Virus record (IMG/VR): IMGVR_UViG_3300042445_002545
DNA length: 20,000 bases
DNA from: an uncultured virus (IMG/VR IMGVR_UViG_3300042445_002545)
Lineage: Duplodnaviria > Heunggongvirae > Uroviricota > Caudoviricetes
Direction: 5' to 3' (one strand)
Of the stretch, positions 5,275 through 18,384 are shown piece after piece. The number at the start of each line of letters is the position of its first letter. The stretch's first letter is position 1. The translations under genes were made by a program, and so were the position numbers. The notes below the pieces were generated by a model that saw only the letters and a program-made list of their open reading frames with translations, ran no database searches and was not told the origin of the DNA.

Positions 5275-5479
5275 CTACAAATAAATTAGGGTTAGCTTCA
5301 ATCCAATCTATAATTGGTTTTTGAAACATCGCTCGAAAACCATGCATGTATAATACATCAGCAACAATGTGGAATTCTTCACCCATTGTGAATGTTAGTG
5401 GTTGTGGAACACCATTAAGTGTTACTTCCATAGCTTTCTTTAATCTGAAAACTTTATTCGAATATTTTACTCTGCTCAT
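5255..5479 (-). CDS. Hypothetical protein (74 aa)
   Basis: Overlaps both neighbours in operon fashion. Confidence 0.7.
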   Translation of the reverse strand: MSRVKYSNKVFRLKKAMEVTLNGVPQPLTFTMGEEFHIVADVLYMHGFRAMFQKPIIDWIEANPNLFVDDTRQF

Positions 5480-6534
5480 AATCCTACTAATTCATTTAAT
5501 TTTATTAAAAACATTTCTCTCGTTTTAGTTGAAATGTATTTATTTATTTCTTTGGGTTCAAGATTATTCTCAATCATGGTATCCATTTCTTCTTTGATAA
5601 CATCATTTACAACCCATCTAATTACGTCACCCATTTTCTTAACATCTAATGGTTCTTCATTAGGGAATACGTTTTCGATTGCTTGGTTAACACGACTTTC
5701 GGTAACCGAATATTCTACAAACTCTTTAATTGAGTTTAATTTTTCAACATCAACAGTTGCTAAGGTTTTAACTTTAGAGGAGCTATGTAATTCACCCTTC
5801 ACCTTGAACCTATGTACAACATTTTGAAATTCACAAGACCAAACGATACCTTCACCAATCCCTGAGAAGCCAAATGCTTTCGCTACAGGACATTCTTCCT
5901 CAACTGCAATAGTCAACTCGGATAATTGATTTTGAATCAACTGAGGCATGTTAAAATCGATATCAATTGAATACGTTTCATAATCATCGATATTGTAAAT
6001 TTTAACCTCTGGTGCTCTCAAGTATGTTGAATCAACCCAATAAGCTGGATTAGCTTTTAATTCTTCTTCAGTTTCAGTATGTGGTGTAATTTTAACACCA
6101 AATATGAAGAATGATTTAGGTAAGTTGGAAATACCAACACCTTTTTGAATATTACCACCAGCCCATTCACCATAAATACTAATAGTATTATTGTTTCTAT
6201 TAATATTTTCTTTTTCAGCAACATGTAACATTAAACCATAAAAAATATCCTTATTTGATTCCACAAAGAATGCAAATCCAGCGTTATCTTTTTCTGGTGT
6301 GATGATATTCTCACGAGATTGTGCCCACAAATCATCTTGACTATTATAAGAAACACCAGCATTAGTACCATGTAATTTTATAGTACCTTTAAAGGTTAAT
6401 ACTGGTTTAGGTAAATTTGGGTCATAAATCGCCTCACCATTTTCATCTAAACCAACAAAATTGTATCGTCTATTAACATTAGAAACAACAGTTCTAAATT
6501 GTTCAATAGACGGAAATTTAATCATTTTTTTCAT
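5476..6534 (-). CDS. RNA ligase, Rnl2-like
   Basis: Nucleotidyltransferase motifs I KLHGTN, III YGEWAG, IIIa FFIFGV, IV GEGIVW, V FKVK, plus helical C-terminal domain. Confidence 0.85.
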   Translation of the reverse strand: MKKMIKFPSIEQFRTVVSNVNRRYNFVGLDENGEAIYDPNLPKPVLTFKGTIKLHGTNAGVSYNSQDDLWAQSRENIITPEKDNAGFAFFVESNKDIFYGLMLHVAEKENINRNNNTISIYGEWAGGNIQKGVGISNLPKSFFIFGVKITPHTETEEELKANPAYWVDSTYLRAPEVKIYNIDDYETYSIDIDFNMPQLIQNQLSELTIAVEEECPVAKAFGFSGIGEGIVWSCEFQNVVHRFKVKGELHSSSKVKTLATVDVEKLNSIKEFVEYSVTESRVNQAIENVFPNEEPLDVKKMGDVIRWVVNDVIKEEMDTMIENNLEPKEINKYISTKTREMFLIKLNELVGL

Positions 6535-10965: not shown

Positions 10966-12084
10966 TTATAACATTTTATATAATGACTTATCGTCATAGT
11001 TTAACATATATTCATTTACTGATGGTATTTTACCATCAACTAATCCAAAGCACATTCCTGTGAAAGGTTTTAAATCATATTTATCACATAACTCAAATAC
11101 CTTAGCAGCATATCTCTTTTTTTCAGATGCTATTATACTATTAGGTTTATGCAACTTTAATTCTTCCCACAAAAACTTTAATCTATTAACCAAATCATCA
11201 TAACCTTCTTTTAATCTCAATAATTCATCTTTTCTATCTGGGAAAGTTGAAATGAATTCTTCAATTTCATTGGTTTTAACAATCACCATAATATTGTGTT
11301 CAGCAGTTTTACCTTTTAAGTGGTGAACGGCCAGGTAGGCTGGATTTTTGATTTTAACTCTATTGTCATCAGCATCTCTAACCACATAGCCTTCTTCAGA
11401 CCATGGCATGTTTTCAAATGTCTTGATTAATGTACCAGCATTCTTAGCATTTAAATCATAAGATTTAACCAATGGTATTCCTAATGATACCGAAACCATA
11501 AATAAATCATTGTATGGTATTTCTTTTAATGTTAATCTATTTCTAACAGCCAATAATTTAGATGATGATTCACCATGTGGTGTTACAACAATATTATATG
11601 GTGTTGTTAATTCAAAAACATATACATGGTCCTTATCTAATAGACAAGTGTTAAATGAATACTTTGAAATAACAGTGTCCCAAAATAATTCATTAAATGT
11701 TGTCCCGTATTTGTTATTAACTTCCCCTTCACCTTCAGCAGTACCCGTAGTTGCCGCAAACCAAATTTCTTTATGCCAATCCCAATAAACTTGAATCATT
11801 GTACCATCTTCTTTATTAAGAACATGTGCGGTATCCCAGTTTATTTTAGCCGCATGACCTTCAGCATTATTAAAAAACTTTCTAAATGCTAATGATATAA
11901 CTTTTAAAGTATCTTTCTCAAGGATAAGACCTCTACAATCCTTAACTTCTTCTAAGGACATATTAGACTCTATTTGATTGTATTTTAAAAGTATTTTGTG
12001 TTCATACTCTTTCACTATCAATTTAAACTCTGAAACAGCTTTATTAAGCCCATTTTTATTTATGTATTCTACTATTGCTAACAT
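10966..12084 (-). CDS. RNA ligase, T4 Rnl1-like
   Basis: N-terminal LLKY..CRGLIL..AFRKFFN, motif I KEDGT, VFEL..PYNIVV, EEGYVV, RVKIKNPAYL. Confidence 0.9.
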   Translation of the reverse strand: MLAIVEYINKNGLNKAVSEFKLIVKEYEHKILLKYNQIESNMSLEEVKDCRGLILEKDTLKVISLAFRKFFNNAEGHAAKINWDTAHVLNKEDGTMIQVYWDWHKEIWFAATTGTAEGEGEVNNKYGTTFNELFWDTVISKYSFNTCLLDKDHVYVFELTTPYNIVVTPHGESSSKLLAVRNRLTLKEIPYNDLFMVSVSLGIPLVKSYDLNAKNAGTLIKTFENMPWSEEGYVVRDADDNRVKIKNPAYLAVHHLKGKTAEHNIMVIVKTNEIEEFISTFPDRKDELLRLKEGYDDLVNRLKFLWEELKLHKPNSIIASEKKRYAAKVFELCDKYDLKPFTGMCFGLVDGKIPSVNEYMLNYDDKSLYKML

Positions 12085-14102: not shown

Positions 14103-15038
14103 TTATTTTTTTATTTCAGTAACTTTTCCAATAACGTTGAATGGTTTTATTTTTCTCCATTCAGTAATATCATTACTCATAACAGCTTTACCACCATTTG
14201 GGTTAACAGCTATTGTGATGTGTGGTGTTGCATTTTTAGTTGGGTAACCCTCAACTTTAACAGCCATAGCCATATCAGATAACCCCAATTCCGTAACTTT
14301 AAGTGTTATATCTTTACCTAAATCTTCTTTGTTCGGTACTGGTTTACCAAATACAATTGTCATATGGTGTGTGATTATACTCCAACCATCTGGAATTTCA
14401 TTTTCAACCCTAGATAATAGTGAACTTCTAGAACCACCATCTAAAACAACAGCAGAATATAATACATCAGATTCTTTATACATATCTTTTGAACCCATAA
14501 CACTAGCAACACTTAATGGGCCTTGACCAGCGTGACTAGCTATCATTGATTCAATCTTTTCCAATGGAACACCATGAGTATTCCTATCAGCTAATTCTTG
14601 TGCTGATAACCCACCAGTACCAATATCAACAAATTGAATGTTTTTATCATCCAATCCCAAATCCAATGCTGATTTAACAGCAACTTTAGATTCGTTTTGT
14701 TTAATATTTGTATTATCTAAGATAACTGGTGATGCACCACTTTTTAATGAATTGGTAAGATTGGTAAGATTTGTTGAATGCGCTTTAGATAAAGGACTAA
14801 AGTCTTTAGTTGTAATCATCTTTTCGAAGAATTCCCTGTAATCACCTTGAGCTTCAATAACATCATCTGTTGAATGAATAATACCATCAGTACCAGCTAA
14901 TTCTTTTGCTTTTGTTGATTTACCAGAACCTGGAATTCCCCTCATTACAATAAGTACCTGGTCTGGTCTAGTAATAGTTACACCTAATGAATTTTTAAGC
15001 GTACCTTCTCTTAATATAGATTTAATTTTATCTTTCAT
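14103..15038 (-). CDS. Polynucleotide kinase (P-loop) fused to a 2H cyclic phosphodiesterase; RNA end-healing enzyme
   Basis: MRGIPGSGKST, STDD, ILDNTN, RNTHGVP (N4BP2/CNPase-like kinase), then HHMTI and PHITI 2H motifs. Confidence 0.87.
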   Translation of the reverse strand: MKDKIKSILREGTLKNSLGVTITRPDQVLIVMRGIPGSGKSTKAKELAGTDGIIHSTDDVIEAQGDYREFFEKMITTKDFSPLSKAHSTNLTNLTNSLKSGASPVILDNTNIKQNESKVAVKSALDLGLDDKNIQFVDIGTGGLSAQELADRNTHGVPLEKIESMIASHAGQGPLSVASVMGSKDMYKESDVLYSAVVLDGGSRSSLLSRVENEIPDGWSIITHHMTIVFGKPVPNKEDLGKDITLKVTELGLSDMAMAVKVEGYPTKNATPHITIAVNPNGGKAVMSNDITEWRKIKPFNVIGKVTEIKK

Positions 15039-15805: not shown

Positions 15806-16183
15806 TTATTTTTTAGGTTTTGTTTTTAACTTAATAAGTTTCTTTTTTGCTATTGGTTTCTTTTTAACTTTTTTCTTAATTTTAGCTTTTCTAGTGAAAC
15901 CACCAATACCACCAACCTTAAGATTCATGCATTTACCATTCTTAACTTTAGATAATGTAACAATAGCTCTTTCCCTCTCAGCTAATAATTCTCGACTTTC
16001 AACTATTTCTAAAATATCAACTCTATGTTTTTCTTTACCATATCTTTTTATTGAAAATTTTATTGCTTTACCAGAACCCATATAACCATCTTCCAGATTA
16101 TCGGTTGAATGCATACCAATATAATATTTGTTATTAACTAAACATGTTGTTTTGTATATGATATGATATTTTTTTTCATTCAA
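15806..16183 (-). CDS. GIY-YIG endonuclease (Seg-like) with Lys-rich tail
   Basis: IIYKTTCLVNNKYYIGMH, YMGSG, conserved Glu, CMNLKVGG; TTG start. Confidence 0.82.
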   Translation of the reverse strand: MNEKKYHIIYKTTCLVNNKYYIGMHSTDNLEDGYMGSGKAIKFSIKRYGKEKHRVDILEIVESRELLAERERAIVTLSKVKNGKCMNLKVGGIGGFTRKAKIKKKVKKKPIAKKKLIKLKTKPKK

Positions 16184-17135: not shown

Positions 17136-17165
17136 ATAATTGTAATATTTTTGATGTGATTAGTG

Positions 17166-17235
17166 TACCGCCTGTGAGGTTCGAACTCACCTTTCCATCC
17201 ATATGAGGGATAGTTGTACTCCACTGACTAGCGGC
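17166..17235 (-). tRNA. Atypical tRNA with CAT anticodon (Met or Ile2), degenerate D arm
   Basis: GCCGCT/GGCGGT acceptor (6 bp), TATCC-CTCATAT-GGATG, GTGAG-TTCGAAC-CTCAC; D stem poorly formed. Confidence 0.7.
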
Positions 17236-17237
17236 AT

Positions 17238-17348
17238 TTTGGTCGATGTCTAGAATCTTTAACCTCCTTTCTTGGCAAGGTCTCCATCATGGGTTCCGTT
17301 GATTGATTCATCTTTATAACCCCATACGGAACAAGCGGGGTAACCAAA
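17238..17348 (-). ncRNA. Candidate pseudoknotted structured RNA, family unknown
   Basis: Closing TTTGGTT/GACCAAA stem; crossing helices ACCCC/GGGGT and GTTCCGT/ACGGAAC; GC-richer than ordinary spacers. Confidence 0.45.
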
Positions 17349-17435: not shown

Positions 17436-17505
17436 AAAGTTTAGAGGCTTTGGGTTAGACACGCCTCAATATTACATGAGAGACCCCATAGATTGCATAA
17501 ACTTT
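17436..17505 (-). ncRNA. Candidate three-way-junction RNA in a tRNA spacer
   Basis: AAAGTTTA/TAAACTTT closing stem, GAGGC/GCCTC hairpin, possible TGGG/CCCA loop-loop pairing. Confidence 0.35.
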
Positions 17506-17506
17506 G

Positions 17507-17583
17507 TACAGAAGGTGAGATTCGAACTCACATGTGACCAACTACCCTTTCTACAAGATATAAGCTTGAGGGGATACATCTGC
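17507..17583 (-). tRNA. Topologically rearranged tRNA-like RNA, anticodon TAT (Ile, AUA reader)
   Basis: GCAGATG/CTTCTGT acceptor, perfect T arm, CAAG-CTTATAT-CTTG hairpin only 8 nt after the acceptor strand; D-loop-like AGTTGGTCA lies 3' of the anticodon arm. Confidence 0.65.
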
Positions 17584-17586
17584 ATT

Positions 17587-18300: not shown

Positions 18301-18384
18301 GGTGTCTGACGGGAATTGAACCCGCATGTCGTAAGACCCCTGTTTCACAGACAGGTGTGGCAAACTAATATCCACCTCAGACAC
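18301..18384 (-). tRNA. trnH: tRNA-His(GTG) with long variable arm
   Basis: GTGTCTG/CAGACAC plus C73; CCTGT-CTGTGAA-ACAGG; 13-nt variable region containing GTC-TTAC-GAC. Confidence 0.85.

Follow-up and report, generated by a model that had tools for sequence, protein, structure and literature searches.

A tRNA-like element in a viral tRNA array

The DNA analyzed here, called the window, is a 20,000-nt stretch of an IMG/VR virus record from lake water (25,189 nt, rated 9% complete, ~30% G+C). It contains a tRNA array in which a 77-nt element (17507-17583) is flanked by tRNA-Ile(GAU) and tRNA-Asn(GUU). We placed the element on the minus strand because the sequence quoted in an earlier note on this DNA is the reverse complement of window 17507-17583; the nine neighboring tRNA genes called by ARAGORN in the window share that strand. 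The parts of the element are listed below, with evidence from two alignments of homologs, A1 (106 distinct sequences of 76-78 nt, pooled from the first pattern scans) and A2 (131 sequences), and from a family model, R1, built from A1.

17507..17583, minus strand: entire predicted rewired tRNA-Ile(UAU) gene, 77 nt without CCA; 92.3 bits with R1
17577..17583, minus strand: acceptor stem 5' strand (element 1-7), pairing with 17508-17514; 7/7 pairs doubly changed
17575..17576, minus strand: U8 A9; invariant in A1 and A2
17571..17574, minus strand: D-like stem 5' strand UCCC (element 10-13), taken as canonical 22-25; 11-39 and 12-38 covary
17554..17570, minus strand: C14, U15 and the anticodon hairpin (stem 16-19/27-30, loop CUUAUAU); 4/4 stem pairs covary
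17560..17562, minus strand: anticodon UAU, in a loop with C32, U33 and A37
17548..17553, minus strand: linker U31 A32 G33 A34 A35 A36; GAAA invariant; probably canonical 43, 44 and 45 plus three extra A
17544..17547, minus strand: D-like stem 3' strand GGGU (element 37-40), taken as canonical 10-13
17533..17543, minus strand: D-loop-like strand AGUUGGUCACA with equivalents of A14, R15, G18 G19 and U20; A41, G45, G46, C50 and A51 invariant
17532, minus strand: Y48-like residue, partner of R42; covaries with element 42
17515..17531, minus strand: T arm GUGAG-UUCGAAU-CUCAC; 4/5 pairs covary
17508..17514, minus strand: acceptor stem 3' strand, pairing with element 1-7
17507, minus strand: discriminator A73; CCA is not encoded and ACAAAG comes next

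The acceptor stem of the window copy, GCAGAUG/CUUCUGU, has five Watson-Crick pairs, G1.U72 and one U6.U67 mismatch, and the T arm is canonical. The anticodon hairpin, CAAG-CUUAUAU-CUUG, carries U33, the anticodon UAU and A37 and is preceded by UCCCCU, which follows U8 A9; its stem in this copy has only four Watson-Crick pairs plus U.U (U15.U31). Between positions 9 and 26, ahead of the anticodon arm, the element has no D hairpin. A D-loop-like AGUUGGUCA stands 3' of the anticodon hairpin, and the order after that hairpin is UAGAAAGGGU, AGUUGGUCACAU, T arm and discriminator A. This is the anatomy set out in the earlier note (acceptor and T arms of normal form, a missing D hairpin and a D-loop-like strand 3'), and it matches the element as read on the minus strand.

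The second-best window match to R1 (18.1 bits) was a canonical tRNA-Asn, so that this model found no second rewired tRNA in the window. Two other members of the array are unusual. The tRNA with anticodon CAU that ARAGORN called at 17165-17238 (minus strand) has no Rfam tRNA match even at E up to 10 and may be a Met or lysidine-type Ile tRNA, or perhaps another atypical tRNA; at 18301-18384 (minus strand) lies an 84-nt tRNA-His whose variable region holds ~10 extra nt and whose Rfam score is weak (41.9 bits). On the minus strand, a few kb from the array, the window encodes two RNA ligases (5476-6534 and 10966-12084) and a Pnk-like kinase (14103-15038). It also encodes a DNA ligase, and a GIY-YIG-like homing endonuclease (15806-16183) adjoins the array.

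Homologs and conserved helices

A search pattern spanning the odd junction, where the D-loop motif lies near the T-loop, found six viral loci, five of them with an identical 77-mer. The window's 77-mer thus recurs unchanged in five other viral contigs, including some with flanks only 69-87% alike or not alignable, a sign of selection on the element; in L004 and L007, the flanks align with the window only as patches of 69-87% identity. Wider patterns, each with one part fixed and the rest free, matched 19, at least 117 and 38 loci, and two later scans contributed 130 further sequences, giving at least 229 distinct homologs with the rewired order in viral contigs. R1 scored 33 copies in 37 loci at 76.8-96.2 bits. 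Genome and MAG contigs yielded 23 pattern matches, of which 18 were full copies, mostly situated in tRNA arrays, and five were chance matches without a T arm. The pattern also matched 81 GenBank phage records: 77 Streptomyces phages (Stanwilliamsviridae), uncultured crAss-like phages, and Kehishuvirus "tikkala", which infects Bacteroides cellulosilyticus. In the Samistivirus phage Jay2Jay (KM652554), for instance, the gene occupies 75237-75313. A megablast search of the window's tRNA array against GenBank phages returned short matches to canonical tRNAs only, with no close cultured relative. Among isolate genomes, a 486,889-nt contig of the cultured bacterium Achromobacter anxifer (L204) carries a rewired tRNA-Arg(CCG) within a tRNA array.

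All four helices covary in both A1 and A2. In A1, 97.6% of cells were paired and 18 of the 20 pairs were doubly changed, with 0/500 shuffles scoring as high. In A2, 98.3% were paired, a value that fell to 38-44% when the 3' partners were shifted by 1-3 columns, and RNAalifold run on A2 alone predicted the same four helices. Double changes occurred at all seven acceptor pairs (97.2% of cells paired), and all four anticodon stem pairs covaried (98.3-100% paired). Across the family, the anticodon arm has a C-U-NNN-A-N loop on a stem of four Watson-Crick pairs plus U15.U31, and the T arm has a 5-bp stem and a 7-nt UUCRANY loop. A single-sequence fold had an MFE of -14.2 kcal/mol (z = 0.00), a stability no greater than that of shuffles. 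The U.U mismatch at acceptor 6-67 (element pair 6-71) seen in the window recurs in 19 of the 131 A2 members, with U.C or C.U in five more, which suggests, from the sequences, a tolerated or selected feature.

The short stem enclosing the anticodon arm pairs 11-39, 12-38 and 13-37, a register that was 100% paired in A1 with 15 double changes; position 10 faces 40 as U.U, or as A-U in three sequences. The pairing proposed earlier, CCCT with AGGG (12-15 with 36-39), can be drawn, and a stem around the anticodon arm was confirmed, but the register was one step off: the proposed pairing left eight unpaired cells at each of 12-39 and 13-38, showed zero double changes and was rejected. Because the pattern that retrieved most A1 sequences held both strands of the stem constant, we also conducted an unbiased test using two patterns that fixed the 3' half only and required a non-G at 38 or 39. 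Filtering for an acceptor stem of at least 6/7 pairs and a T stem of at least 4/5 removed three of the 133 distinct matches and kept 130. The unconstrained 5' strand was complementary in 128/130 of these, the two exceptions being C.A and C.U. Pair 11-39 was CG in 74, AU in 47, UA in seven and GC in two sequences, and pair 12-38 was UA in 66, CG in 56, AU in five and GC in three.

According to the earlier note, a decayed gene would have no homologs that retain the rewired arrangement; at least 229 distinct homologs retain it, with compensatory changes in every helix. Judged by this comparative record, the rewired tRNA is a real, widespread phage tRNA, mostly for isoleucine, and not a decayed gene. 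We found no prior description of the layout in Rfam 15 or in the openly available full-text literature searched, and the accessible parts of PMC7609411, PMC9897764 and PMC13092985 contain none. The single literature match to the motif GAAAGGGUA was the flexizyme sequence and was set aside as a coincidence.

ARAGORN did not call the element in the window. The Rfam tRNA model (RF00005) scored it at 27.4 bits versus a gathering score of 29, and only in an alignment that deleted the D arm (15 model positions vs. 4 nt) and inserted 18 nt in the variable region, and none of the other Rfam 15 families fits it. When 30-nt flanks were included, ARAGORN called 3/229 homologs, all three as aberrant tRNAs of 87-95 nt; as a control, 9/9 canonical window tRNAs were called when cut at their exact ends. 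Among the 60 GenBank phage records listed, out of the 81 that match, 58 have no feature at the rewired tRNA, and the sole labeled cases are the two records of one phage, EGole, in which it is labeled tRNA-Leu. The EGole gene (MK494112.1 75265-75341; L428:401-477) is a rewired tRNA(GAU) of precisely 77 nt annotated with "codon recognized UUA", and the tRNA-Leu label is a mis-read anticodon. The ARAGORN counts (3/229 homologs vs. 9/9 controls) and the EGole label bear out the earlier expectation that scanners would miss or mis-call such an element.

Weaker matches to R1 (33-57 bits) included divergent copies in which the order of parts is unchanged and the core differs:

L212:1377-1450: Arg UCU, 4-bp enclosing stem CGGC/GCCG, AA bulge, GGU
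L027:437-513: Arg UCG, 4-bp enclosing stem CAGC/GCUG, AA bulge, GGA
L025:1408-1484 and L196:1316-1392: Ile GAU, D-loop UAGCGGUUGAAAAC

Since these subtypes keep the order of parts, the layout is not tied to a single conserved sequence. ARAGORN did not call the divergent rewired tRNAs of L196, L025 and L027.

Other unusual genes occur at related loci. L005:946-1545 is a broken copy of the window's rewired tRNA, in which the anticodon loop is enlarged by 7 nt and ~510 nt are inserted after U31 A32 G33. The insert holds an Endonuclease_7 ORF (PF02945, E 1.5e-24) at 1011-1412 as well as a rewired tRNA-Ile(UAU), complete but divergent, at ~1412-1494, directly next to the old 3' part; it resembles a mobile endonuclease that brings a replacement tRNA with it. 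The same contig has an 86-nt tRNA-Ile(GAU) of canonical order (856-941) with a long variable arm, GUGC-GAAA-GCAC, which is unusual for tRNA-Ile. A 63-nt tRNA-like gene at L218:559-621 has an acceptor stem, a D arm and a T arm; a short UUCG-capped hairpin replaces its anticodon arm, leaving no anticodon.

Connectivity of the core and comparison with known tRNAs

U8, A9, the T arm and the acceptor stem are standard, and in the wiring that we propose the rearrangement would be confined to the core. After A9, the chain would enter canonical 22-25, normally the 3' strand of the D stem, and pass through a 26-like C into the anticodon arm. It would return via 44/45-like residues and the invariant AAA linker, then enter canonical 10-13, normally the 5' strand of the D stem, which would pair with the 22-25 strand. 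A normal D-loop (A14, R15, G18 G19 and position 20) would come next, and a single Y48-like residue would lead it into the T stem. Segment 10-45 would be permuted in this way, with new ends at 22 and 21 and the old ends, 45 and 10, joined. The correspondence we infer is as follows:

Element 10-13: canonical 22-25
Element 14: canonical 26
Element 15-31: canonical 27-43
Element 32-33: canonical 44-45
Element 34-36: extra AAA linker
Element 37-40: canonical 10-13
Element 41-51: canonical 14-21
Element 52: canonical 48

Such a permutation would create three new joints, 9 to 22, 45 to 10, and 21 to 48. In crystals of yeast tRNA-Phe, 9 contacts 12-23, 45 contacts 10-25, and 21 lies on 8-14 beside 15-48. 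The new joints would thus connect residues that are neighbors in the canonical L-shape, so that the same D/anticodon stack and D-loop/T-loop elbow can form, and by this analogy the L-shape could be kept despite the permuted core. Such a gene would arise if 10-45 were duplicated and the outer parts then lost.

In neither alignment is there any variation at U8, A9, C13, C14, G33 A34 A35 A36, G37, U40, A41, G45 G46, C50 or A51. Element 42, a purine, covaries with element 52, just 5' of the T stem (AU 97, GC 21, GU 4 and other 9 in 131 sequences), which in terms of sequence is the pattern of the canonical 15-48 pair. At this R15-Y48-like pair, G.U stands in the window copy and A-U in L159, a close relative. 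In 227/229 homologs, A is the discriminator. The anticodons carried by the type-1 scaffold were distributed as follows:

UAU: 150 viral
GAU: 71 viral
CAU: 4 viral
Arg anticodons UCU, CCU and ACG: 4 viral
Arg anticodons CCG, CCU (two) and UCU: 4 in genome contigs

The anticodon UAU reported earlier stands for the window element, but the scaffold is not UAU-specific: GAU and CAU also occur on it, as do five anticodons for Arg. None were seen beyond those for Ile, those for Arg and CAU, an odd range for a general architecture; the patterns fixed a core motif and could not find others. The residue after GG was A in 8/8 type-1 Arg members (ACG, CCU, UCU and CCG) and U in 224/225 Ile and CAU members. 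A20 is a determinant for ArgRS. Since the A tracks the Arg anticodons, the rewired strand behaves as a real D-loop. A counter-case is the divergent Arg(UCU) member at L212:1377-1450, which has GGU, not GGA. The proposal that a tRNA is rebuilt with different strand connectivity, its D-loop lying 3' of the anticodon arm, is supported by the layout kept in homologs, the R15-Y48-like covariation and the A20-like identity signal.

The rewired tRNA shares with canonical tRNA-Ile (RF00005) a 7-bp acceptor stem, U8, a 5-bp T stem with a UUCRANY loop, a 7-nt anticodon loop with U33 and A37, A73, an A-R-YY-GG-U D-loop motif, a length of ~77 nt and a location in phage tRNA arrays. It differs in that the D-stem 3' strand and the anticodon arm precede the D-stem 5' strand and the D-loop, so that its D stem encloses the anticodon arm, whereas the canonical D stem encloses the D-loop; unlike in canonical tRNA-Ile, the variable region is one Y48-like residue. 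In the permuted tRNA genes of Cyanidioschyzon merolae, the 3' half is encoded ahead of the 5' half, and a canonical tRNA is recovered by processing. Segment order departs from the cloverleaf in both cases, but the rewired tRNA has normal ends, with the acceptor 5' strand at the 5' end and the 3' strand at the 3' end, an internal permutation (10-45) and no sign of reversal. Pan, Gutell and Uhlenbeck reportedly engineered circularly permuted tRNAs in 1991, with a fold that tolerated moved backbone breaks; those were laboratory constructs with new ends, whereas the rewired tRNA is a natural family with normal ends and an internal permutation.

D-armless mitochondrial tRNAs also have no D hairpin between the acceptor and the anticodon arm. 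In these (mammalian mitochondrial tRNA-Ser(AGY) and nematode tRNAs), the D-loop and elbow contacts are lost and the molecule is flexible, according to the accessible part of PMC7609411. The rewired tRNA, in contrast, has a canonical T-loop and retains the full D-loop motif and an equivalent of the D stem, in a different order: A41 and G45 G46 are invariant, and R42-Y52 and 11-13/37-39 covary, which speaks against loss of the GG and of the elbow contacts. Allo-tRNAs, as far as they are described in the accessible parts of PMC5389517 and PMC7609411, have 8/4 or 9/3 acceptor/T stems, occur in metagenomes and phages, and include UAU among their common anticodons. On that description their segments follow the cloverleaf order and their variable arms are long, whereas the rewired tRNA has 7/5 acceptor/T stems, no variable arm and a rewired core.

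Decoding, rival explanations and significance

Eight distinct arrays combine a type-1 rewired tRNA with a tRNA-Ile called by ARAGORN, and in every one (8/8) the two carry different anticodons. Seven of these arrays (window/L008, L003/L006, L004/L007, L019, L025, L027 and L029) pair a rewired UAU with a canonical GAU, and the tikkala array is reversed, with a rewired GAU and a canonical UAU; at five further loci, no canonical tRNA-Ile lies within 3 kb. By its gene content, the tRNA array is non-redundant for Ile anticodons. ATA makes up 137/446 Ile codons and AGA 118/179 Arg codons in 22 window ORFs. The "leader ATA codons" that the earlier note had cited for AUA decoding could not be identified.

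Six RNA runs contained small shares, and four were examined as RNA-library contigs, which may contain DNA. Of these four, only X15 has a contig over the element (17459-17585), at depth 2 with one difference and diverging beyond 17585; because it also covers 48 nt 3' of the gene, it may represent DNA or a precursor. Contigs from runs X16, X17 and X18 lie on neighboring canonical tRNAs or flanks.

We consider it likely that the element is a working elongator tRNA that accepts isoleucine and uses its UAU anticodon for AUA codons, with a circularly permuted core (canonical 10-45). The conservation, covariation, identity signals and gene context behind this reading are direct observations; equivalence in three dimensions, CCA addition, charging by host IleRS (ArgRS for the Arg members) and use on the ribosome would be expected of such a tRNA. 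As the earlier note suggested, an unmodified UAU anticodon may also let it bypass TilS. Several features count against the reading: G1.U72, U6.U67 and the G.U at the R15-Y48-like pair in the window copy, the anticodon stem of four Watson-Crick pairs, the unremarkable single-sequence fold, the narrow range of anticodons and the GGU of the divergent Arg(UCU) member.

The element could instead be a decoy or regulator in the shape of a tRNA, transcribed yet without a role in decoding, for instance a bait for host anticodon nucleases or further defense enzymes directed at tRNA, or a binder of IleRS or ArgRS. This would account for a core unlike that of any tRNA known to work on a ribosome and for an anticodon range restricted to Ile, CAU and Arg. 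The two RNA ligases and the Pnk-like kinase nearby suggest conflict over tRNA integrity, and tRNA-like genes devoid of an anticodon do occur in such arrays (L218:559-621). A decoy, however, needs neither a perfect 7-bp acceptor stem, nor A73, nor an A20 that tracks Arg anticodons, and it has no need of an anticodon that complements the canonical tRNA-Ile of its array and does not duplicate it (8/8 arrays). The anticodon loop also retains C32, U33 and A37; we regard this explanation as unlikely. We find it very hard to see the element as a working tRNA of the D-armless mitochondrial type, in which a flexible connector stands in place of an elbow or D-stem equivalent. The Rfam tRNA model does align it in that manner, dropping the D arm and placing a long insert in the variable region, but a plain connector would not keep UA-R-NN-GG-U-NN-CA-Y invariant, nor would R42 covary with Y52, or 11 with 39 and 12 with 38.

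That the transcript is cut and re-ligated to canonical order, or bears an intron, so that the mature tRNA is a cloverleaf, seems scarcely credible even in a window that encodes RNA ligases and a kinase and with the precedent of red algal permuted tRNA genes that are restored by processing. By inspection, a single excision never gives a cloverleaf, and two cuts and two ligations would be needed; moreover, the acceptor 5' and 3' halves are already ordered normally, and the family spans phages as unlike one another as Crassvirales, those of Streptomyces and those of lakes. To a decayed or rearranged pseudogene or a chance look-alike we assign practically no probability: one related locus, L005, does hold a disrupted copy, but the comparative data, with at least 229 distinct homologs, compensatory changes in all helices and 0/500 shuffles that match, refute this reading.

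Returning to the working tRNA with a permuted core, we also considered, as a doubtful but conceivable extension, that the permutation is an adaptation and not a neutral alternative, yielding Ile and Arg decoders that are still substrates for IleRS or ArgRS, EF-Tu and the ribosome but that, through their altered backbone path, escape host enzymes reading the D/anticodon region. The enzymes escaped would be anticodon nucleases, certain modification enzymes, or other immune effectors directed at tRNA. Phages such as T4 use a set of RNA ligase and kinase to repair cleaved tRNAs. The presence of such a set near the array is suggestive in that it would fit defense escape, without being evidence for it. 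If the adaptation reading is true, phages have evolved a second, defense-resistant tRNA architecture.

The tRNAs known to act in translation all follow the strand order of the cloverleaf, in full or truncated form. If the permuted core is as we propose, the cloverleaf would not be the only way to build a tRNA, and selection would hold the L-shape. The family would provide a natural test of which backbone connections are needed by synthetases, EF-Tu, RNase P and the ribosome, as well as a new scaffold for orthogonal tRNA design, and cultured systems exist in Streptomyces phages on S. lividans or S. griseus and in "tikkala" on Bacteroides cellulosilyticus. Phage tRNA inventories would also be undercounted, given that 58 of the 60 listed records leave the rewired tRNA unannotated and the other two mislabel it.
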